A DNA stretch of 55,979 nucleotides from Caldilineae bacterium (GTDB lineage: Bacteria; Chloroflexota; Anaerolineae; DTLA01): NCBI GenBank assembly GCA_037446815.1, contig JBBIHX010000006.1, positions 1 to 55,979 of the forward strand, in the 5' to 3' direction. The translations under genes were made by a program, and so were the position numbers. Each line of letters opens with the position of its first letter. Positions within the stretch are counted from its first letter, which is position 1. The notes below the pieces were generated by a model. It did not search any database and had not been told where the DNA came from. It was given only the letters and a program-made list of their open reading frames with translations. Of this stretch, positions 42,237 to 51,791 are shown piece by piece.

Positions 42237-43277
42237 CTGTCCAGAGACATTCACGAGCAGAGAAAAGCGGAGCATCTGAGGATCGCTCTTGAAGAGACGG
42301 TTTCTCCTGGTTATGTAAAGTCTGGCTTTGAGCGATACCGATTCCTGCATCAGGCCTTGCCCGAAATAGACCTGGATGAGGTGTCCACGGCCTGCTCTTT
42401 CTTGGGCCACGATCTTGCTGCTCCCCTGCTCATCTCCAGCATGACCGGAGGCACCCCGGCAGCGGGCGAGATCAACCAGCGACTGGCATGTGTTGCCCAG
42501 GAATTCGGGCTCGCCCTGGCGCTTGGTTCGGTTCGTGCAGCGATTGAAGACGCGCGCCTCGCTGCGACGTTCCAGGTTCGCCGATGGGCGCCGGATGTGT
42601 TCTTGCTGTGCAATCTAGGTGCGGTGCAACTGAACTACGGCTATGGCCCCGATGAATGCATGCGCGCCGTGGAGATGACCGAGGCCGATGCCCTGGTGCT
42701 TCATCTCAACCCTTTGCAGGAGGCCTTCCAGCCTGCAGGCAACACGCGATTCGCAGGCTTGCTCAAGGCGATAGAAACAGTTGTGCGTGATGTCCCCGTG
42801 CCAGTCATCGTCAAAGAGGTGGGCTGGGGCATTTCCGGCGACGTTGCTCGGCGCCTCGTGGATTGCGGCGTGTCCGCGATTGATGTCGCCGGCGCGGGCG
42901 GAACGTCCTGGAGCGAGATAGAGGGGTTTCGCATGGCTCCGGATGACGTGCAGCGTGAGGTGGCCAAGGACTTCCGCGACTGGGGCATCCCTACCGCCGA
43001 GGCCATCCGCCAGGTGCGCAGGGAGTGCCCCGAGGTGCCTCTTATCGGAAGTGGGGGCCTCCGAACGGGGATAGACCTTGCCAAGGCCCTGGCGCTCGGC
43101 GCAGATATCGGCGGTATTGCCCTGCCTTTCCTCAAGGCTGCCGTAACCTCGGAACAGGCTCTGCGCGACGAGGTCGTCCGGGTGCTTTCTGGCCTGCGCC
43201 TGGCGATGTTCTGCATCGGCGCGAAGGATGTCCCGTCTCTGCGTGCCACGGACCGCCTATACCACGAAGGGGGATGA
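42237..43277 (+). CDS. fni: Type 2 isopentenyl-diphosphate isomerase
   Basis: RKAEH, HQALPE, SSMTGG, HLNPLQE, KEVG.G, GGTSW; start inferred at CTG 42237. Confidence 0.92.
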   Translation: MSRDIHEQRKAEHLRIALEETVSPGYVKSGFERYRFLHQALPEIDLDEVSTACSFLGHDLAAPLLISSMTGGTPAAGEINQRLACVAQEFGLALALGSVRAAIEDARLAATFQVRRWAPDVFLLCNLGAVQLNYGYGPDECMRAVEMTEADALVLHLNPLQEAFQPAGNTRFAGLLKAIETVVRDVPVPVIVKEVGWGISGDVARRLVDCGVSAIDVAGAGGTSWSEIEGFRMAPDDVQREVAKDFRDWGIPTAEAIRQVRRECPEVPLIGSGGLRTGIDLAKALALGADIGGIALPFLKAAVTSEQALRDEVVRVLSGLRLAMFCIGAKDVPSLRATDRLYHEGG

Positions 43278-43281
43278 CACA

Positions 43282-44343
43282 TTGAGCGAGGGGCCCAATC
43301 ACGCGCAACTGCTCAACCTGGTGGACGCTGCGCTGCGCGATGCGCTTGCCGTGCCGCACCCTGCCCTAGCGCCGTTCTACGGCATGATGCAATACCATCT
43401 GGGCTGGGTGGACCGCAACCTCCGAGAGAACCCGTCCTACAAGGGCGGCAAGCGGTTGCGCCCCCTTCTGACGCTCCTCTCGTGTGAATCCGCGGGTGGA
43501 GATGTGAAGCAGGCTCTGCCGGCCGCCGTGGCCGTGGAGTTGGTTCACAGTTTCTCGCTTGTCCATGATGACATAGAGGATCGCAGCGAGTTCCGACGAC
43601 ATCGCGAGACTGTCTGGCGTCTGTGGGGAGATGCGCATGCCATCAACGTGGGAGATGGATTGTTCGCGCTTGCTCGTCTGCACCTCGGGCGATTGTTGGA
43701 CGCGGGCATCCCTGCGCTGCGCGTTGCTAGCGTGTTTCACGTGCTGGACGCGGCCTGCATTGCGCTCACCGAGGGGCAGTTTCTGGACATGCAGTTTGAG
43801 AGGACCGACTCGGTCTCGCTTGATGACTACTTCTGGATGATTCGCGGCAAGACGGCTGCCCTCATGGCGTGCGCTTGCGAAATGGGCGCCATGATCGCCA
43901 CAGATGAAGCGGGCGTCATGAAAGCCCTGCATGATTTCGGTTACAATTTGGGGATGGCGTTCCAGATAGCGGATGACATCCTCGGCATTTGGGGCGAACC
44001 TGCTGTTACGGGGAAACCGGCCGGGGATGACATCCTGAACCGCAAGAAGACGCTGCCCATAGTATACGTGCTGGAGACTGGCCAGCAGCCCGACGCCCCA
44101 CCCCAGTTGAGGAGCGCCGCCGAGGCGATCCGGCAGGTATTCCGGTCAGATCGGGTGTCCGATAGCGATCTGCGGCGCGTGCTCGCAGCGTTGGAGGCCG
44201 GGCAGGCCAAGGAGTATTGCACGCAGTTGGCTGAAGAATACACGCAGCAGGCTCTTACTGCCCTTTTGGCCCCGGGGCTGCTGCCGCGCCCTCGGGAGAG
44301 TTTGCGTCGGTTGGCAGAATCGCTGCTGGGACGCGAAACGTAG
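43282..44343 (+). CDS. Polyprenyl (GGPP-type) synthetase
   Basis: GKRLRP, SLVHDDIED, GQFLD, GKTA, FQIADD. Confidence 0.92.
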   Translation: MSEGPNHAQLLNLVDAALRDALAVPHPALAPFYGMMQYHLGWVDRNLRENPSYKGGKRLRPLLTLLSCESAGGDVKQALPAAVAVELVHSFSLVHDDIEDRSEFRRHRETVWRLWGDAHAINVGDGLFALARLHLGRLLDAGIPALRVASVFHVLDAACIALTEGQFLDMQFERTDSVSLDDYFWMIRGKTAALMACACEMGAMIATDEAGVMKALHDFGYNLGMAFQIADDILGIWGEPAVTGKPAGDDILNRKKTLPIVYVLETGQQPDAPPQLRSAAEAIRQVFRSDRVSDSDLRRVLAALEAGQAKEYCTQLAEEYTQQALTALLAPGLLPRPRESLRRLAESLLGRET

Positions 44344-44533: not shown

Positions 44534-45316
44534 CTAGCCCTTGCTCCCTTGTTGCCCGCGCTCCCGCCCTAGCAGGGCCGCGCCGAGGGCGCCAACCAGT
44601 TGACAGTCCGTCGGCACGCTAATCGGCATGCCCAGCAAACCCTCCAGGCGCGCCACAACCCCCCGATTCAGCGCCACACCACCCGTCATCACAACACGCG
44701 GTTGGATTCCCACCTGCCGCGCCAGCCCGGCCACCCGCGCTGCGATCGCGTCCAGAAGGCCCGCCACAACATCCTCCATCCTCCGCCCCGCGGACAGATG
44801 CCCGACCACCTCCGACTCGGCGAACACGGTGCAGGTGCTGCTGATGGGCACCGGCTTTCTCGCCTGCCCCGCCAAATCGTCCAGGTCTGACACCGAAACA
44901 TCCAGCGTGCGGGCCATAACTTCCAGAAAGCGCCCCGTGCCCGCCGCGCATCGGTCGTTCATCGCGAACTGCACCACCCGACCGCCCTGCTCCACGCGCA
45001 GCACTTTGCTGTCCTGGCCGCCCACATCAATCACGGTGCGGACATCCGCAAACAGATGCGCTGCGCCCCGCGCGTGGCACGTGATTTCCGAGACCTCCAT
45101 GTCTGCGCCATCCATGCAGACGCGCCCGTAACCGGTAACGACCACAAACCGAGGGGCCTCGGGAATCTCCCCCAACAACGCGGATGCCGCCTGGACGCCC
45201 GAGCGTCCCGACGGCACCACCTTCGCGAAGATGCGGCTGCCCTCATCATTCAGCACCACGATCTTAACCGTAAGCGAGCCGATGTCCAGACCCACCCATT
45301 GCGTGTCGGCAGCCAT
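44534..45316 (-). CDS. 2-hydroxyacyl-CoA dehydratase activase (HgdC/BadF-like ASKHA ATPase)
   Basis: GLDIGS, TGYGR, DVGGQDSK, MNDRCAAGTGRF, STCTVFAESE. Confidence 0.9.
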   Translation of the reverse strand: MAADTQWVGLDIGSLTVKIVVLNDEGSRIFAKVVPSGRSGVQAASALLGEIPEAPRFVVVTGYGRVCMDGADMEVSEITCHARGAAHLFADVRTVIDVGGQDSKVLRVEQGGRVVQFAMNDRCAAGTGRFLEVMARTLDVSVSDLDDLAGQARKPVPISSTCTVFAESEVVGHLSAGRRMEDVVAGLLDAIAARVAGLARQVGIQPRVVMTGGVALNRGVVARLEGLLGMPISVPTDCQLVGALGAALLGRERGQQGSKG

Positions 45317-45317
45317 G

Positions 45318-45983
45318 TTACGCCACGCCCTCCAAGCGGAACCCGTGGCCGCGAACCGTTACAATCACGCCGCCTGCCCCATACGGGGCAAGCCGCTCCT
45401 TCAATCGCCGTACTAGCGCATCAATGGCTTGCTCGCTGACCCCCTCGGCGCTGTCTTCCGCCCAGACCGCCGTAACGATCTCCTCACGGCTTACGACCCG
45501 CCCGCGCGCCGTCCACAGGAGGTGCAAGAGCCGAAATTGCGCGGGGGACAGCGGTGGGTTCACCTCCTCGCCCCTTACCCACACGCGCCGCGATGCGGCA
45601 TCCAAAGACAGAAGATGTGCATCCCTCGCCGCTTGCGCGGTGGCCTCGCCGATGGACAGCGGCGTTGTCGCACCAGGGCCCACGAACACCATTTGGCAGC
45701 ACAAGGCAACCTGAATCTCATCCCCGTCATGCAATCGCCGCTCCTGGACGACCCTCTCGCCATTGACGAACGTACCGTTCTTGCTTTCGCAATCCCGCAG
45801 AACGAACTCCGAGCCAACCCTGACAATCTCGGCGTGACGCCTGGACACGCGGCGATCCGGGATCACAATGTCATTCCCATCATCGCGGCCAATCGTCAGC
45901 CGTTCGGCCACGAGCGGATACCGCGACGACACCGGGCCGAGCAACACGAGCATGGCCACATCCTCTTCGGGAATATCAGCCAT
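45318..45983 (-). CDS. FHA plus OmpR-type winged-helix regulator
   Basis: IGR..D, VSRRHA, SKNGTFVNG; VRRLKERL, TVRGHGF. Confidence 0.88.
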   Translation of the reverse strand: MADIPEEDVAMLVLLGPVSSRYPLVAERLTIGRDDGNDIVIPDRRVSRRHAEIVRVGSEFVLRDCESKNGTFVNGERVVQERRLHDGDEIQVALCCQMVFVGPGATTPLSIGEATAQAARDAHLLSLDAASRRVWVRGEEVNPPLSPAQFRLLHLLWTARGRVVSREEIVTAVWAEDSAEGVSEQAIDALVRRLKERLAPYGAGGVIVTVRGHGFRLEGVA

Positions 45984-46005
45984 ACCGGCACTCCCACAAA
46001 TCCGC

Positions 46006-46446
46006 TCAGCGGGATAGATGGGCAATGAGCGCCTCAATCCCCCACAGGTAACTGCGCCACCCAAAGCCCACAATGCTCCCAACGCAGACCGGCGCAATCA
46101 CCAGGTTGTGGCGAAAACTCTCCCGCGCGTGGATGTTTGACAGGTGAACTTCCACCACCGGAAGGTTCACGCTGGAAATCGCGTCACGAATGGCGATGCT
46201 GTAATGCGAGTATGCCCCAGGGTTGAGCACGATGCCATCCGCCCACGTGCGCGCCTGGTGAATGTGCTCAGCGATCTCGCCCTCACAGTTGGCTTGGTGA
46301 AACCGCAGTTCCACATCCCTGCCGGCGAAATGCTCCTCCAACCGCCGCTGGATGTCTTGCAGCGTATCGCGGCCATAGATCTCGGGCTGGCGCGTGCCTA
46401 GCAGGTTCAGGTTCACCCCGTTCAGTACAAGAATTCGCGTCGTCAT
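46006..46446 (-). CDS. aroQ: Type II 3-dehydroquinate dehydratase
   Basis: LNG.NLNLLG.R.P.IYG, NPGA..H.S, EVHLSNI.ARE.FRH. Confidence 0.93.
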   Translation of the reverse strand: MTTRILVLNGVNLNLLGTRQPEIYGRDTLQDIQRRLEEHFAGRDVELRFHQANCEGEIAEHIHQARTWADGIVLNPGAYSHYSIAIRDAISSVNLPVVEVHLSNIHARESFRHNLVIAPVCVGSIVGFGWRSYLWGIEALIAHLSR

Positions 46447-46467: not shown

Positions 46468-47268
46468 CTATGCGATGCGTCCGCCTGGAAGAGGCGGCCC
46501 GCCCGCGTACACCTCCTGCACGCTAACTATGCCGACCCCTCCGCGTTTCTGCCAGCGCCCCTTCAATTGATACGAGATGGCTTCAAATGTCAAGATGTTG
46601 CAGGCCACCGGGTCGCCATCCGCAGGCCACCCAAGCGGACCCTGGACGGCTCGGTGCACCATTTTGCCCGGCCCGGCAGGCTGTAGAGATAGCGCAGGTG
46701 CAATGCGCGGGTATCCATCCCCGCCGATCCACGCCAACACTTTCACCGCCACCATCTTCGCGAATTCCGCGCGCACCGGCATGGGCACAACAATGGTGTC
46801 CCCCACGCCATTGCGCGCCCGCGCGGCCGCAAGCCTTGTGCGCAGATAGTCCGCCGCCACGTTCATCCGACCAATGGCAAACTCACCCAGGAGCGACTTC
46901 ACGCGGAGGATGCCCGCGTTCCGCACGCCCGTATAGGCATTGTACCGAAGCAGCGAACTGTTCATCTGGCGCTCCACGTAGGGCCCTGTGCGCTGGAACT
47001 CCACAAAATCCGCCAGGAGGACCCACCCCTTCAATTCTGGCGTGATGACCAGCACACATACGCGCGCATCCTCTTGCAGGTTCTGTATGCTTTTCCGCAA
47101 CAGAAAATTGCCGAAGAACAGCGTGTCCGTCTCGTCCTCCGAGGGCAGTATGGAGACCACGGGCACGACATTGGGTACACCTGCCGCGCTCCGAGTGGCA
47201 AGGAACTTCGGCGTCATCTCTCCCCGCAGGGCGTCTAGCAGCCCTGGAGTGCGCTCCAAAATGCTCAT
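46468..47268 (-). CDS. Pyridoxamine-5'-phosphate-oxidase-like split-barrel protein, apparently tandem
   Basis: PKFLAT....GVPNV..KS..NL, then VKVLAW....GYP.I and SYQLKG. Confidence 0.6.
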   Translation of the reverse strand: MSILERTPGLLDALRGEMTPKFLATRSAAGVPNVVPVVSILPSEDETDTLFFGNFLLRKSIQNLQEDARVCVLVITPELKGWVLLADFVEFQRTGPYVERQMNSSLLRYNAYTGVRNAGILRVKSLLGEFAIGRMNVAADYLRTRLAAARARNGVGDTIVVPMPVRAEFAKMVAVKVLAWIGGDGYPRIAPALSLQPAGPGKMVHRAVQGPLGWPADGDPVACNILTFEAISYQLKGRWQKRGGVGIVSVQEVYAGGPPLPGGRIA

Positions 47269-47279
47269 TTCTCCCTCCA

Positions 47280-48218
47280 CTAATCGCGAGTTGCGCCAGA
47301 CCACTGGGCCACGGGCACATGCGCTACCGCCATGTGCCAGACGGCTTCCATCTCTTGCCGCGTCATGAGAGGCACGGAATCCAAGGCATAGTGCAAATCC
47401 AGCCGGTGGTACTTGGGTTTGCCCAGGTTCGTGTATGCGAGCAAATCCCAACGCTCCACGTTGGACAAATGCCCGCGGATGAACTCCCCTATGGCGGTGA
47501 TGTTATCCGCATCATCGGTGTAGCCGGGTATGACCGGAGTGCGAACCCACATAGGCTTGCCCATGGCCGCAAGATGGCGTGCGTTGGCAAGCACATTCTC
47601 ATTGCTCATGCCCGTTGCAGCCTTATGGCGCGCCGTGTCCATGATCTTCAAGTCCAACAGCACCAGGTCCACGAATGGCAGTATCCTCCCATAAACCTCC
47701 CACGGCATGACGCCGCTCGTGTCCAGCGCCACGTGAATGTCCTCCTCCTTGCAGCGCCGTGCCATGTCAGTTACGAACGCGGCCTGCATCATCGGTTCGC
47801 CGCCGCTGAAGGTTACGCCGCCGCCCGACGTTTCGTAGAACACCTTGTCCTTGAGGATTTCGGCCATCAGCCCTTCCGCGGTCCATCGTTGCCCGATGAC
47901 TTCCAGCGCCGAGGCAGGACAAGCCTGCACGCAGAGGCCGCACACCGTGCACCGCTGTCGGTCAATCCGCATGCCCTGCGGCGTCAACTGCAGCGCCGCC
48001 TCCGGGCACGCGCGAAGACAGTCCTGCGCCGCGATGCAGCGCGTGTCGTGCCACACCAAGTCGGGCTGGCTCCGCAGCCCTTCCGGGTTATGACACCAAA
48101 CGCATCGCAGCGGGCACCCCTTCATGAACACCGTGGTGCGGATTCCCGGCCCGTCCTCGGTGCTGAACTGCTGAATGTTGAACGTAACACCGGTGATTGC
48201 CATAACCTTTCCCGCCAA
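47280..48218 (-). CDS. Glycyl-radical enzyme activating enzyme
   Basis: DGPGIRT, GCPLRC.WCHNPE, ferredoxin-like insert, GGVTFSGGEP. Confidence 0.93.
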   Translation of the reverse strand: MAGKVMAITGVTFNIQQFSTEDGPGIRTTVFMKGCPLRCVWCHNPEGLRSQPDLVWHDTRCIAAQDCLRACPEAALQLTPQGMRIDRQRCTVCGLCVQACPASALEVIGQRWTAEGLMAEILKDKVFYETSGGGVTFSGGEPMMQAAFVTDMARRCKEEDIHVALDTSGVMPWEVYGRILPFVDLVLLDLKIMDTARHKAATGMSNENVLANARHLAAMGKPMWVRTPVIPGYTDDADNITAIGEFIRGHLSNVERWDLLAYTNLGKPKYHRLDLHYALDSVPLMTRQEMEAVWHMAVAHVPVAQWSGATRD

Positions 48219-48230
48219 TCTCCAAGGCTC

Positions 48231-50636
48231 CTACAGTGCGTGGCTCTCCCTTGCGATGATTTCGTCCTGAATCTCCTTGCCCAACCCCACGAAGTACGCG
48301 TTGTAGCCGGTAACACGCACCAGGAGATTGCGGTACTCGTCGGGATGCTTCTGCGCCTCGCGCAGGGTCTCGGGGCTGATGACGTTGATTTGCAGACACG
48401 TGCCCCCGACCTTGCCGTAGGCCCGCAAGAGTGCGGCCAGTTTCTGCCTCTGCTCCGCGCTCCTCAACAGCGACGGGCTGAAACTCATCGTGTGGCTTGC
48501 TCCGTTGGGTGCCGTCTCCAACCCAAGATGGCCGACGCTCTTGATCACCGCCGTCGGCCCCTTGCGGTCAGCCCCGTTGACAGGACAAACGGCGTTGGAG
48601 AGGTACTGGCCTCGCTTGCGTCCATCCGGCGTCGCCGCTGTAGTCGGGGCATAGGCAATCCAGTAGTTCCACGACAGATAACCGCCCCGATAGCGCTTCC
48701 CCGTTGGCGATACATGCTTGAATGCTTCCTCTGTCCAGAAACGACTCACTTCACGCGCAACATCGTCAACATAGGGATCATCGTTCCCATACTTGGGCGC
48801 CTTGCTCAGCAGCATCTGCCGCAGGGATTCGTGCCCTTCAAAGTTGGCCCTGACAGCCGCGAGTAGGTCCCCCATGCGAACCTGCTTGTCCTCAAAGACC
48901 AGTTTCTTCACAGCCGCCAGGCTATCGGCTGCGGTCGCCAGGGCAACGCCTTCTACCGTGAGGAAGTTGAACTCCGCGCCGCCGGCATTGCTGTCCTTTC
49001 CGCTCTGCAGGCAGCCATCCACCAATGCGCTCATGTACGGCACCGGCTCCCAACGCGCCCGCCCGGCATCGGCCATGTCATTGACCCGAATAATCCACTC
49101 TACCAGGTGCTTCAGTTGCGTTCGGAATGCGGCGTAGAATTCGTCAAAGGTACGAAAGTCGCGCGCATCCCCAGTCTTCGGCCCGATCTGCTTCCCCCTG
49201 GCCATGTCTCGCCCGTCGTTCAGCGCGAGTTCCACGGCCTTCGCTAGGTTCAAGTTCACGTCCACCGTGCCCGAGCGGTCACACCCTTGCAGCGTGTTCT
49301 CCAGACACCCCACCGGCGCGTAGTCCCATAATCGGTCCTCGGGCAGCCCCTGCCATCGCAGTCCCGCCATGGAGTTCTCGTCAAAGTTGATGAGAAACGC
49401 TGAGCCCTGCGTCTTGGACAGCATTTCCACGAGACGATTCAGCAGCCGATCGGGAGTCCGCGCATGAACACGCACGTTCGGCTTCGGCTCCAACAGGTTG
49501 ATCTCCTCTATCACATCCAGCATGAGGTACGTGAGATCGTTGGAAGCGTCGCTCCCGTCCGCGTTCATCCCCGCAAGCGTAATCAACTGCCCGAAAGAGG
49601 AGTTGATGCCCTGATTCGTCCCCACCCAGCCCTGGTAGTCATACACATAGTTGTGCTTGATCCACCAGCACTCCAGCCACTCCTTGGCCTGCTCGCGGGT
49701 CAGCCTGCCCGATTGGATGTCGGCCTCGTAGTAGGGGTACAGGTACTGATCCACCCGCCCGGGCGACACGCCAGGCCCTGGATAGCTCTCCGCGGCCATG
49801 AGCAGCATGTGAGTCGTCCACAGCGCCTGCAGGGCCTCTGGGAATGTCTCTGCGGGCAACCAGGGCACTTTGCGGCAGATGCGCGCTATCTCCAGCAACT
49901 CTGACCGGCGGTTCGCGTCGGCCTCATCCTGGGCAAGGCGCTCGGCCTCCCTCGCGTACCGCTCCATGAACTCCGGCACCGCCTCTGCGCAAATGACCAC
50001 CGCCCGCGCCAAATCTCGCTGCTCGGGCGTGCTGGCGGGGTCATCGGCAATCGCCTGCGCCTCATCCCGAATGCCTTTCCAGCCCATGCGCAACGCTTTG
50101 GGGTAGTTCGGAATCAGATGCCCGGGCACTGCGCCACAGTTGCCCACGCCTGTGCTGTTCAGTTTCTCCCACTCGCGGAAGAACGCCTCTTCTTCGCGAT
50201 CGCGCTTTTTCGCCTCGTCGCGCTTCAGACACCGCGACAGGGCCGTGTTGAAATGCGAGCCAACGATGAGTTCGCCTTCCCGTATCTGCACCGGCAGGTG
50301 TTGGCGCAGCACTTCCCTAAAGAACAGTGCCCGCCGCACCACCAAGGGTTCCTCCCAGAATCCAGCGGGGAGCGCTACGGGCGTTGCCGCGGCCAACAGG
50401 TAACTACGGTACCCCCGCTGGAACATCGCAACCTCGGGCACATTCGTCCAGTTCCAGATGGAATACACGACATCCCAGGGCGTTCCCGTCGTGTAGGCGC
50501 GCACCTCATTGGTGAAATCGCGTGTGTAGAAGGACCAATACTCATCGCGCAGCCGTCTGATGCGAGGCGATAGGGTGTCAGAGGCGCACCAAATCTGGGC
50601 TGGGGATACTACGGTACAGGTTTCCGAAGTGCTCAT
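48231..50636 (-). CDS. Glycyl radical enzyme, unassigned class
   Basis: GRVDQYLYP, GCLE Cys loop, PKYGND, ATPDGR, LLVRVTGY Gly loop; SD GGAGG before ATG 50636. Confidence 0.92.
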   Translation of the reverse strand: MSTSETCTVVSPAQIWCASDTLSPRIRRLRDEYWSFYTRDFTNEVRAYTTGTPWDVVYSIWNWTNVPEVAMFQRGYRSYLLAAATPVALPAGFWEEPLVVRRALFFREVLRQHLPVQIREGELIVGSHFNTALSRCLKRDEAKKRDREEEAFFREWEKLNSTGVGNCGAVPGHLIPNYPKALRMGWKGIRDEAQAIADDPASTPEQRDLARAVVICAEAVPEFMERYAREAERLAQDEADANRRSELLEIARICRKVPWLPAETFPEALQALWTTHMLLMAAESYPGPGVSPGRVDQYLYPYYEADIQSGRLTREQAKEWLECWWIKHNYVYDYQGWVGTNQGINSSFGQLITLAGMNADGSDASNDLTYLMLDVIEEINLLEPKPNVRVHARTPDRLLNRLVEMLSKTQGSAFLINFDENSMAGLRWQGLPEDRLWDYAPVGCLENTLQGCDRSGTVDVNLNLAKAVELALNDGRDMARGKQIGPKTGDARDFRTFDEFYAAFRTQLKHLVEWIIRVNDMADAGRARWEPVPYMSALVDGCLQSGKDSNAGGAEFNFLTVEGVALATAADSLAAVKKLVFEDKQVRMGDLLAAVRANFEGHESLRQMLLSKAPKYGNDDPYVDDVAREVSRFWTEEAFKHVSPTGKRYRGGYLSWNYWIAYAPTTAATPDGRKRGQYLSNAVCPVNGADRKGPTAVIKSVGHLGLETAPNGASHTMSFSPSLLRSAEQRQKLAALLRAYGKVGGTCLQINVISPETLREAQKHPDEYRNLLVRVTGYNAYFVGLGKEIQDEIIARESHAL

Positions 50637-50732
50637 GAAGTCTACCTCCCGATCCGCAATTGGACAGCAGACACTCCGAACGCCGAGAGTATACCGCAAC
50701 ACCCCACACCCTGCAAAGTCGGCGCCGCCGGC

Positions 50733-50836
50733 GATTCGGTTCCGAACTACGTTATGTCCACTGTCATTCTGAGCGGCGAAGCCGCGAAGAATCTCGGTAG
50801 CCGATAGGCCTCGCCTACGGCTCAGGCCAGCACGGC
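50733..50836. repeat. Truncated copy of the MITE/REP family
   Basis: GATTCGGTTCCGAA end; 50760-50796 is identical to 50859-50895. Confidence 0.7.
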
Positions 50837-50981
50837 GAGTCGGTTCCAAAGTCTGTCTACTGTCATTCTGAGCGGCGAAGCCGCGAAGAATCTCGCTGAC
50901 CGAGATGCTTCGCCTTCGGCTCAGCATGACAGAGTGGGGAGGCGGCGCGCGGGACAGACCAACACAGTTTGGAACCGAGTC
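50837..50981. mobile_element. 145-bp MITE-like element with 10-bp target duplication
   Basis: TIRs GAGTCGGTTCCAAA / TTTGGAACCGAGTC; CCAGCACGGC at 50827-50836 and 50982-50991. Confidence 0.85.
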
Positions 50982-51077
50982 CCAGCACGGCCTCGTTCTT
51001 GCCCATCATCCGCCCGCGTGATATACTGACGACCAGCGCATGCACATCAGCACGAATACACGCGAGAGGTTGAGCCC

Positions 51078-51791
51078 ATGGAACACCCACTCCCCCACCC
51101 TCTTGAACAGACCCTACATTACCGGTTTCACCAGCCGGCGCTGCTTCAACAGGCGCTGACGCACTCATCTTATGTCAACGAAAATCGCGACGCCGGGCTC
51201 CAGGACAACGAGCGTCTGGAATATCTCGGCGACGCCGTGCTGGATTTTGTCGTCGCAGAGTGGCTCTTTCGGGAGTTTCCGACACTGGCCGAAGGGGACA
51301 TGACCAACCTCCGCGCGCGACTGGTGCGCGAGGACACGCTAGCTCGTCTGGCGCAGCGCATCAACCTGGGCGAGCACCTCCTCCTCGGCAAGGGCGAGGC
51401 CGAAAGCGGCGGCCGTTCCCGCCCGCACAACCTGTGCGCCGCGTTTGAGGCCCTTGTCGGAGCCGTGTATTTGGATGCTGGCCTGGAGGGTGTGCGCGCC
51501 ACCTTTCGTCCGCTCATGGAACCGGAACTCCACCGCGCGCTGCGGGATCAGTCCATCCGCGACCCCAAGAGCCTGCTCCAGGAATGGGTGCAGGCGCGTT
51601 ACCACCTTACCCCAACCTACGACACCGTATCCGAAGAAGGCCCGGACCACGCGAAAGCCTTCACCGTTCACGTTCTCGTCAACGGGCGCGTCGTTGGCGT
51701 CGGCACCGGACCCAGCAAGCAGGCGGCGGCCCAGCAGGCTGCGGCGGTCGCCCTGCACCGACTGCAGACCGAAGATTCAACCACCTCTTGA
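51078..51791 (+). CDS. rnc: Ribonuclease III
   Basis: ALTHSSY, NERLEYLGDAVL, FEALVGA.YLD, dsRBD. Confidence 0.95.
   Translation: MEHPLPHPLEQTLHYRFHQPALLQQALTHSSYVNENRDAGLQDNERLEYLGDAVLDFVVAEWLFREFPTLAEGDMTNLRARLVREDTLARLAQRINLGEHLLLGKGEAESGGRSRPHNLCAAFEALVGAVYLDAGLEGVRATFRPLMEPELHRALRDQSIRDPKSLLQEWVQARYHLTPTYDTVSEEGPDHAKAFTVHVLVNGRVVGVGTGPSKQAAAQQAAAVALHRLQTEDSTTS

Follow-up and report, generated by a model that had tools for sequence, protein, structure and literature searches.

A three-gene module with a glycyl radical enzyme and a split-barrel partner

We analysed a stretch of 55,979 nucleotides (hereafter the window) from Caldilineae bacterium (Chloroflexota, class Anaerolineae), which corresponds to positions 1 to 55,979 of contig JBBIHX010000006.1 in assembly GCA_037446815.1. 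Three consecutive genes on its minus strand encode a glycyl radical enzyme (GRE), its activating radical-SAM enzyme (the activase), and a third protein, here called the partner, which is built as a tandem split barrel of the PNPOx type and which, according to structure modelling, is probably a bound accessory subunit of the GRE. The features of the locus are compiled in Table 1. A previous inspection of this DNA without database searches, referred to below as the sequence-only reading, had described the three genes as a tight cluster, and the spacing confirms it: 12 nt separate the GRE from the activase and 11 nt the activase from the partner, the latter gap containing a GGAGG Shine-Dalgarno sequence. 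Matches to Pfam families and to orthologues indicate that the three open reading frames (ORFs) are real genes and not chance. This GRE is the only PFL-like GRE in the source genome, which comprises 3.19 Mb in 265 contigs and is 93.6% complete.

The ORF listing gives TTG as the start of the activase, with the next ATG at codon 6. The longest ORF over the GRE (48231-50927, 898 aa) was rejected as the GRE gene, its extra 97 residues being the read-through of a 71-nt repeat. Two direct copies of this repeat, 89% identical and 99 nt apart, lie just 5' of the GRE start; the spurious extension carries a repeated peptide that derives from both of them, and a 20-nt inverted repeat overlaps the pair. 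A riboswitch or other RNA 5' of the GRE was also rejected, the Rfam scan being empty: no family reached the gathering score in the whole window, and none was found at E up to 1 for positions 50500-51200.

Table 1. Coordinates of the module, of its sequence motifs and of the neighbouring features in the window.
Feature	Coordinates	Strand	Description
GRE gene	48231..50636	-	Catalytic glycyl radical enzyme, Cys-x-Glu class; 801 aa, ATG start
Cys loop YAPVGCLENT, residues 439-448	49293..49322	-	Catalytic C444 and base E446 (CXE); aligns to GCVE of glycerol dehydratase, HypD and CutC
Gly loop RVTGY, residues 774-778	48303..48317	-	Radical-bearing G777, aligns to G763 of glycerol dehydratase
His173	50118..50120	-	General-acid His position of glycerol dehydratase (H164) and HypD
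N-terminal insert, residues 44-83	50388..50507	-	Family-specific, contains WNWTNVPE; main surface on which the partner is predicted to dock
Activase gene	47280..48218	-	GRE-activating radical-SAM enzyme, two-cluster ferredoxin insert; 312 aa
Partner gene	46468..47268	-	Tandem split barrel (PNPOx/HupZ-like); 266 aa, ATG start
RYNAY loop of partner, residues 108-112	46933..46947	-	R108, Y109, N110 and Y112 invariant, A111 in at least 90% of 33 sequences
C-terminal tail of partner, residues 253-266	46471..46512	-	PPLPG motif; P258 and P259 invariant, G262 nearly so
71-nt direct repeat, two copies	50755-50825, 50854-50924
20-nt inverted repeat	50837-50856, 50962-50981
aroQ	46006-46446	-	Type II 3-dehydroquinate dehydratase; 21 nt downstream of partner
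FHA/winged-helix gene	45318-46097	-	FHA domain fused to OmpR-type winged-helix DNA-binding domain, without receiver domain; precedes the ATPase
BcrAD_BadFG gene	44534-45316	-	Acyl-CoA dehydratase activase-type ATPase; TIGR00241 260 bits
Polyprenyl synthetase gene	43228-44343	+	50-nt overlap with the FMN_dh-type gene, few kb from the module
FMN_dh-type gene	42357-43277	+

The GRE belongs to the Cys-x-Glu class and falls under every equivalog cut-off

The GRE matches the Pfam families PFL-like (E 9.3e-148, beginning at residue 150) and Gly_radical (E 4.5e-28, residues 681-783). With a Gly loop of the form RVxG[FWY], a catalytic Cys in the PFL-like barrel and a cognate activase, it is, by its sequence, a member of the GRE superfamily. 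The activase itself scores 346 bits with TIGR02494, whose cut-off is 174, stays under the cut-off of all equivalogs, and matches in Pfam the Radical_SAM family together with several 4Fe-4S ferredoxin (Fer4) families.

By profile scores, the GRE falls in the PFL2/glycerol-dehydratase group and under every curated equivalog cut-off. Among the NCBIfam models, TIGR01774 (PFL2/glycerol dehydratase subfamily) comes first with 539 bits against a cut-off of 678, followed by HypD (479 against 1100), HpsG (462 against 1000), HpfG (421 against 1000), CutC (TIGR04394; 416 against 1050), the PflD type (370 against 1109), IAD (300 against 1100) and HPAD (266 against 1150). A search of the PDB returned 37 distinct matching sequences, all of them aligned from about residue 170 onward and none of them close, the best being long CutC (9f3w, E 8.4e-134) and glycerol dehydratase (1r8w, E 1.8e-126). 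The sequence-only reading had called the GRE unassigned, and so it stays: no characterised GRE of high identity turned up, either as a close PDB entry or through a cut-off that was reached.

The motifs that the same reading quoted, YAPVGCLENT, RVTGY and the N-terminal stretch TGTPWDVVYSIWNWTNVPE, were all located in the protein, the last one at residues 49-67. Its remark on the Cys loop is also correct, since the loop holds a single Cys (VGCLE) and not the Cys-Cys pair of PFL, whose model TIGR01255 gives 115 bits against a cut-off of 994. For the residue-level comparison, three reference GREs from plasmid records (C. butyricum, Cetobacterium somerae hypD and Proteus mirabilis) were aligned with 72 family members at 59-94% identity. 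We infer that the 787-aa GRE of C. butyricum, which has the length of 1r8w and adjoins an activase and an iron alcohol dehydrogenase, is DhaB1, and the 1142-aa GRE of Proteus mirabilis, unannotated in its record, was taken as long CutC. G777, C444, L445, E446 and H173 are kept in all 72 family members. C444 aligns to C433 of glycerol dehydratase, C435 of HypD and C785 of CutC, and E446 to E435 of glycerol dehydratase, while the column of H173 holds His in glycerol dehydratase (H164) and in HypD and Asp in the CutC of P. mirabilis, where it presumably has a role toward the trimethylammonium group. The residues that we take to bind glycerol in glycerol dehydratase are H281, S282, Y339, D447 and Y640; their counterparts in the GRE are P288/G289, G349, V458 (with D459 adjoining) and L654, and these replacements are invariant in the 72 members as well.

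By motif, these residues place the GRE in the Cys-x-Glu (CXE) class of 1,2-eliminases and isomerases, and the description of the protein as eliminase-like is supported by the Cys-x-Glu and the His at the position of glycerol dehydratase H164 and of HypD in 72 of 72 members. A superfamily review of June 2026 (PMC13450708) gives H164, C433 and E435 as glycerol dehydratase residues, states that every characterised eliminase and isomerase retains the Cys-x-Glu, with the Glu hydrogen-bonded to a substrate hydroxyl, and has His164 of glycerol dehydratase protonating the leaving hydroxyl. In the C-S lyases IslA, IseG and HpsG, according to the same source, the sulfonate is anchored by two Arg and one Gln.

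Across the 72 sequences, 152 of the 801 GRE positions are invariant, and the first 20 residues are unconserved (mean conservation 0.29). The AlphaFold2 (AF2) model of the GRE monomer, built from 33 sequences, has a mean predicted local distance difference test score (pLDDT) of 80 and renders the Gly loop region as a helix.

The partner is an obligate companion of the GRE

A protein search with the GRE gave 4762 matches at E <= 0.001 among 8000 scored candidates, other GREs included. The best 120 matches are 76-92% identical to the query and 776-821 aa long, and their database names ('formate C-acetyltransferase', 'PFL/glycerol dehydratase family' and, twice, 'trans-4-hydroxy-L-proline dehydratase') are either generic or probably wrong. 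One cluster of GREs at 79% identity (P0054) is labelled Candidatus Bathyarchaeia; the review reports no archaeal PFL-like GRE with known function (PMC13450708).

For the gene context, we considered the best 80 of 235 stretches encoding a relative, obtained with a pattern scan from one genome per species. These 80 loci are taken from metagenome-assembled genomes (MAGs) that carry the labels Chloroflexota/Anaerolineae, Dehalococcoidia, Thermodesulfobacteriota/Deltaproteobacteria, Actinomycetota, Acidobacteriota, Riflebacteria and others. The family is found in phyla of anoxic sediments, groundwater and peat, and its members are 60-80% identical across phyla. With tblastn, 71 of the 80 loci were found to hold the activase and 61 the partner, which lies downstream in 60 of these and upstream in one, always on the same strand; the tight order GRE-activase-partner is present in 39. 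The 19 loci without the partner include 15 with less than 2.3 kb of DNA past the GRE and one (L068) that stops right after the activase; the three true exceptions (L005, L022 and L028) have a full-length partner elsewhere in the genome (E 1e-110 to 1e-116). The genes inserted among the three differ between loci, and when the neighbouring ORFs of all 80 loci were clustered, only the GRE, the activase and the partner proved to be broadly shared. A fourth large cluster was discarded as an artefact of crude ORF calling in GC-rich DNA, consisting of antisense ORFs over the GRE.

The same picture was obtained from 151 genomes of the class of the source organism, which were screened with a GRE profile and a partner profile. 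GRE orthologues are clearly set apart from other GREs, the former scoring at least 968 bits with matches that begin at profile positions 3-18, the latter at most 580 bits with matches that begin at position 88 at the earliest and mostly at about 169. A GRE orthologue is present in 21 of the 151 genomes (in three of them, G117, G053 and G150, cut at contig ends or split), and all 21 have the partner. The partner occurs in 23 genomes altogether; the two without a GRE orthologue are G075, which is 88% complete and has a fragment of the partner where a contig ends, and G145, which is 64% complete and has the partner in two pieces. Conversely, it is missing from 44 of the 45 genomes that have other GREs only. 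The partner is thus an obligate companion of the GRE. In the sequence-only reading, a split-barrel gene that failed to accompany the GRE homologues would have counted against the proposal; the gene does co-occur with them.

Pairwise identities of the GRE and of the partner in 51 paired loci are correlated with r = 0.94, a value reached by none of 2000 label permutations, which shows, at the level of sequence identities, that the two are inherited or transferred as a unit. Several partner or GRE genes are odd-sized, among them L007:7862-9082 (406 aa) and the short class of 147-149 aa represented by L023:13036-13479 and L026:10359-10808, and further odd or split genes are found in G033, G044, G145 and G053. 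Such elongated, shortened or split genes may be MAG frameshifts or decaying copies.

Sequence and predicted fold of the partner

In the window, the partner matches the Pfam family PNPOx_N (PF01243) with E 2.5e-5 and 25.1 bits, below the cut-off of 28.1 bits; the same family matches 28 of 28 aligned partner orthologues, at best with E 5.4e-12. The AF2 model is of high quality (pLDDT 90.1, predicted template-modelling score 0.89) and consists of two beta-barrel halves with a helix between them. When this model was compared with Foldseek, each half was found to resemble small split-barrel proteins (E 1e-7 to 1e-4, probability 1.0, target template-modelling score about 0.7-0.8): HupZ, the FMN-binding proteins of Syntrophomonas and D. 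vulgaris, the F420-binding proteins (FDORs) and the prFMN maturase PhdC, each of which covers about half of the model. The sequence profile of the partner reaches the haem-associated proteins HupZ (E 3.8e-4) and HutZ as well as the FMN-binding protein 3in6, whereas single-sequence phmmer searches against the PDB gave no match even at E 10. The split-barrel identity that had been proposed for this protein is upheld by the model, the Foldseek relatives and the Pfam matches of the orthologues, and the modelled partner is a tandem, pseudo-dimeric PNPOx-like split barrel. In a protein language-model atlas, which we use only as a lead, it lies among PNPOx-type clusters without a name, in which Chloroflexota, Actinomycetota and an Asgard phylum are the most frequent of the known phyla.

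The positions invariant in the alignment of 28 partner sequences are K21, F22, A24, P32, N33, F52, K59, N63, G95, R108, Y109, N110, Y112, P187, Q234, K236, P258, P259 and G262, of which 17 remain invariant in the paired alignment of 33 sequences. The RYNAY loop is the sole stretch of the monomer model with pLDDT below 50. Because the protein has two Cys, no Fe-S motif and no invariant His, an Fe-S cluster or a His-ligated haem is unlikely. Binding of a flavin is plausible.

Predicted complex of the GRE and the partner

Complex prediction was carried out with GRE residues 21-754 and the whole partner, leaving out the first 20 residues and the radical domain (about 755-801), and with paired alignments of both proteins from the same 32 loci and the window. 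The prediction score was 0.89, compared with 0.00 for the best of three controls; in the calibration, that level is reached by 116 of 157 solved complexes and by 2 of 215 mismatched pairs. Three runs share at least 82% of their contacts, with a partner pLDDT of at least 87. A score arising from a memorised structure is unlikely, because nothing like the partner has been solved in complex with a GRE. The model supports binding of the two proteins without showing it.

On the side of the partner, the predicted interface comprises residues 54-58, 106, 108-116 with the RYNAY loop, 162-168, 229-233 and, in the C-terminal tail, 253, 255-263 and 265-266. On the side of the GRE, it comprises residues 44-45, 53 and 68-83 of the N-terminal insert, P286, 334-346, 656-664 and 676; the stretch 68-83 comes directly behind WNWTNVPE. 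The best-determined contacts lie on the insert, where GRE residues 74-83 meet partner residues 162-168, 229-233 and 253-260. P286 is within the ESYPGPG loop that replaces H281/S282 of glycerol dehydratase, and residues 656-664 are within the SWNYWIAYAP segment, which starts one residue past L654, the counterpart of Y640. In GREs that have no partner, the match to the family profile leaves out its N-terminal 168 residues.

The conservation of the partner is concentrated at this predicted interface, which holds 6 invariants in 35 positions as compared with 11 in 231 elsewhere (Fisher p = 0.014); when nearly invariant positions are added, the numbers are 11 of 35 and 26 of 231 (p = 0.003). Two of the contacts also covary. 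Residues 78 of the GRE and 168 of the partner, with an expected error of 0.8 A, are S-E in 29 of the 51 pairs and a D or E facing K or R in 14; an acid-acid pair occurs in none of the 51, and residue 168 is never acidic when residue 78 is. Residues 337 of the GRE and 58 of the partner are W-R in 34 pairs; in 17 pairs the GRE has R or K at position 337, and there position 58 of the partner holds V or I (12 pairs), W (3) or D (2), without a single R. The confidence of the monomer models is low at partner residues 108-112 and at GRE residues 339-348 and 660-701; loops that order upon binding would fit this, and we give the point little weight.

Because the complex prediction, the partner invariants at the interface and the covarying contact pairs agree, a bound accessory subunit is favoured, and we conclude from the modelling that the partner is probably such a subunit at the mouth of the active site and not only a downstream enzyme.

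Surroundings of the module

In the source genome, the module is surrounded by housekeeping genes. Downstream lie aroQ, the FHA/winged-helix regulator and an orphan HgdC-type ATPase, and upstream and divergent lie the genes for RNase III and an acyl-CoA ligase; genes for a protein like type-2 isopentenyl diphosphate (IPP) isomerase, a polyprenyl synthase and HflX are found farther away. This arrangement is common to the three closest loci only. The aroQ gene is possibly co-transcribed with the partner; it was rejected as a part of the module, its adjacency being confined to those three loci (L001, L002 and L006). No dehydratase or reductase subunits adjoin the ATPase gene of the BcrAD_BadFG type. 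The FMN_dh-type protein is possibly the type-2 IPP isomerase.

Other neighbours recur in parts of the family. In the Actinomycetota loci L062-L077, extra neighbours are found repeatedly (e.g., L066:6769-7893, L066:7945-9504 and L072:5121-6323); this branch has an alpha-L-arabinofuranosidase-like gene in 6 loci, an MFS transporter, a CCG/Fer4 protein and, in 8 loci, a weakly prenyltransferase- or terpene-cyclase-like gene just upstream. An acyl-CoA-dehydrogenase-like gene directly follows the partner in 8 loci, six of the Actinomycetota branch together with L025 and L058. A patatin-like phospholipase gene is upstream of the GRE in L026, L027, L046, L048, L052 and L074, four of which are labelled delta proteobacteria. 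Acyl-CoA ligase genes occur in 7 loci, enoyl-CoA hydratase genes in 5 and MaoC-like genes in 4, with SCP2 genes in others. The faint lipid flavour of these neighbourhoods could be chance, and a lipid- or sugar-related substrate, which might be guessed from the gene context, is unsupported.

Proposed function and alternative explanations

We favour the interpretation that the locus encodes a heteromeric GRE of the CXE class, whose split-barrel accessory subunit binds to the N-terminal insert and either gates the entrance for the substrate or completes it; on balance, we judge it likely, with considerable room for doubt. The catalytic steps would follow from the conserved residues. The activase would generate a radical on G777, from which it would move to C444; the resulting thiyl radical would abstract a hydrogen atom from the carbinol carbon of the substrate, E446 would deprotonate the hydroxyl on that carbon, H173 would protonate the neighbouring leaving group, most likely one bound through C-O, which would depart, and the product radical would regain a hydrogen from C444. 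The substrate should be larger than glycerol, because the pocket, compared with glycerol dehydratase, is widened, two of its positions being now Gly, and has a more hydrophobic or aromatic character. The partner, in turn, is predicted to dock on the family-specific insert, with its RYNAY loop and C-terminal tail resting on the loops that flank the active-site positions, and by analogy with BSS-beta and MASS-beta it may gate or complete the entrance. An isomerase that acts on an intracellular metabolite would be in keeping with a locus that is self-contained and lacks a conserved transporter or downstream enzyme.

Several observations weigh against this interpretation. The calibration of the complex score holds only roughly, the alignments being custom-built. 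The contacts near the active-site loops may be overstated, the radical domain having been left out, and the predicted contact could partly fill the room of that domain or of a second protomer. The AF2 monomer of the GRE is poor at residues 339-348, 660-701 and 779-801, with a shallow alignment. The GRE residues of the interface are not enriched in invariants (9 of 34 against 184 of 700, p = 0.56), a test that is uninformative because the whole GRE is so conserved. Both the correlation of identities and the covariation are confounded by shared descent, the covariation following clades and few independent changes underlying either, and the partner diverges faster than the GRE, with identities of about 30% against about 60% in the most distant pairs. 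Pfam searches of 33 neighbour representatives, each from fewer than 10 of the 80 loci, revealed no consistent pathway: the types found were ABC and MFS transporters, acyl-CoA dehydrogenase-like proteins, AMP-ligase, enoyl-CoA hydratase, MaoC, patatin, SCP2, arabinofuranosidase, aminotransferase, peptidases, adenosine deaminase and amylase. Finally, when proteins of 467-2000 aa were searched for the partner, no fusion to a GRE or an activase turned up, which is weak evidence.

The main competing explanation of the partner is a free-standing flavoenzyme, with FMN or F420, that reduces or oxidises the product of the GRE with no stable complex, in the manner of DhaT or P5C reductase. Such a role resembles that proposed in the sequence-only reading, where the partner handles the product or redox step. 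It agrees with the likeness to FMN- and F420-binding split barrels and the PNPOx_N matches of the orthologues, with the faster divergence of the partner, and with the layout of characterised GRE operons, in which the next enzyme is encoded (dhaT after the glycerol dehydratase of C. butyricum, proC after hypD). Yet the contrast between the complex score and its controls, the concentration of partner invariants at the predicted interface, the covarying contacts and the tracking of the GRE-specific N-terminal insert by the partner all argue for binding, and the closest PDB sequence relatives, HupZ and HutZ, are not flavoproteins. We consider a free flavoenzyme unlikely. The part of the earlier proposal that made the partner a separate enzyme gives way to a bound subunit, which is favoured by the predicted complex, the interface invariants and the covariation and which may still have a redox role.

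A role in radical handling, either as the low-potential electron donor for the activase cluster or in controlling the installation or quenching of the glycyl radical, appears quite improbable. GRE activases require a one-electron donor, the partner gene directly follows the activase with a gap of 11 nt, and one of the structural neighbours of the partner, the FMN-binding protein of D. vulgaris, is an electron carrier; the predicted interface, however, involves the N-terminal insert and the active-site-flanking loops of the GRE and not the activase. Regulation of how the glycyl radical domain moves is known for BSS-beta and MASS-delta (PMC13450708). As regards the GRE itself, its membership in another chemical class, that of the decarboxylases or the X-succinate synthases, is highly improbable, although some papers on sediment genomes give such labels to unassigned GREs. 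In genome surveys, pflD and assA are called hard to separate from other GREs and unassigned sediment GREs are listed, and genes for acyl-CoA ligase, enoyl-CoA hydratase, acyl-CoA dehydrogenase-like proteins and MaoC stand near some loci. Against this, the CXE and the His of the glycerol dehydratase type are invariant, the decarboxylase models IAD and HPAD score lower, the BSS and MASS structures are matched with E 1.5e-69 and 1.5e-77 as compared with 1e-126 for glycerol dehydratase, the beta-oxidation neighbours are each present in fewer than 10 of the 80 loci, and genes for HiPIP-like small subunits are absent.

Comparison with known systems

The GRE shares with the B12-independent glycerol dehydratase DhaB1/DhaB2 of C. 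butyricum (1r8w) the fold, the Gly loop, the single Cys, the CXE and the general-acid His, as well as an activase of the ferredoxin-insert type encoded next door; these traits are also common to the other C-O-cleaving GRE 1,2-eliminases, propanediol dehydratase, HypD, HpfG, HpyG and HpzG. It differs from glycerol dehydratase in that the identity is about 36% and extends over residues 172-801 only, the N-terminal 170 residues being unalignable, and in that H164 (as H173) is the only one of the listed substrate-binding residues to be kept. Every equivalog cut-off is missed by a factor of about two, and neither these enzymes nor glycerol dehydratase have an accessory subunit. From the choline trimethylamine-lyase CutC, whose cut-off is missed as well, the GRE is distinguished by His in place of Asp. 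A further resemblance is to the GRE isomerases YbiW, PflD and HplG, which have a CXE with the Glu hydrogen-bonded to a substrate hydroxyl and cleave C-O or C-N without net elimination (PMC13450708). Their PDB matches are nevertheless weaker than those of glycerol dehydratase and CutC (8id7 and 8id0 at about E 1e-98 to 1e-101, 7vua at 7e-79), the PflD-type cut-off is missed, and the isomerases are without a partner subunit.

In the partner, each half has the fold of HupZ/HutZ, the D. vulgaris FMN-binding protein, the FDORs and PhdC. Unlike the split barrels of the HupZ/HutZ type, which are single-domain homodimers, it is a one-chain tandem fusion, or pseudo-dimer, without an invariant His for haem, and its conserved residues map largely to the predicted protein-protein interface.

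Accessory subunits are known, according to the review, for HPAD, BSS and MASS only, and all of them are Fe-S or rubredoxin-like proteins (PMC13450708). The sequence-only reading saw no small Fe-S subunit gene in the module, and indeed no gene for a HiPIP-like or rubredoxin-like small subunit was found in the module in the window or among the conserved neighbours. The substrate channel is covered by a hairpin loop in the case of BSS-beta and by a loop in that of MASS-beta, and BSS-beta is required for turnover and triggers the formation of the thiyl radical (PMC13450708). Like BSS-beta and MASS-beta, the partner is encoded with its GRE and has a loop and a tail that are predicted to lie against active-site-flanking loops. 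Unlike HPAD-gamma, BSS-beta/gamma and MASS-beta/gamma/delta, which are HiPIP-like [4Fe-4S] or rubredoxin-like, it is a tandem split barrel of 266 aa that accompanies a CXE-type GRE, outside the subunit families of the X-succinate synthases and HPAD. The nearest item in print, and in the accessible text the only published PNPOx-type gene found inside a GRE operon, encodes LssP, an expressed PNPOx-family protein of unknown function from the operon for limonenylsuccinate synthase (Lonsing et al. 2025, PMC12583861). LssP accompanies an X-succinate synthase with beta and gamma subunits, and we set it beside the partner by description only. We found no paper on this GRE clade or on a split-barrel GRE partner in a literature search outside which most subscription journals lay.

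Significance

The review notes that whole GRE clades are still without a function (PMC13450708), and a sediment genome survey describes some GREs that group with no characterised enzyme. With the GRE described here, a known superfamily gains a new clade, one that is large and strongly conserved. Since public databases name it formate C-acetyltransferase or even hydroxyproline dehydratase, metabolic reconstructions for these organisms probably contain an error at this enzyme. The partner, if it is as modelled, would add a new type to the accessory subunits of GREs, and the range of architectures known in the family would be broadened by a CXE-type GRE with a gating subunit that is not an Fe-S protein. 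A more speculative role, which we hold to be doubtful, would have the partner either place a flavin or F420 at the mouth of the GRE active site, coupling radical chemistry to electron transfer, or supply substrate-binding residues through its RYNAY loop. The former would amount to a GRE reaction, other than ribonucleotide reduction, with a net reductive or oxidative outcome; a C-O bond in some abundant compound of sediments or derived from membranes could, for example, be cleaved reductively. The latter would give the first composite two-subunit GRE active site. There is also a practical point for the assignment of function: should the partner be a true subunit, attempts to express the GRE by itself in a heterologous host may fail.

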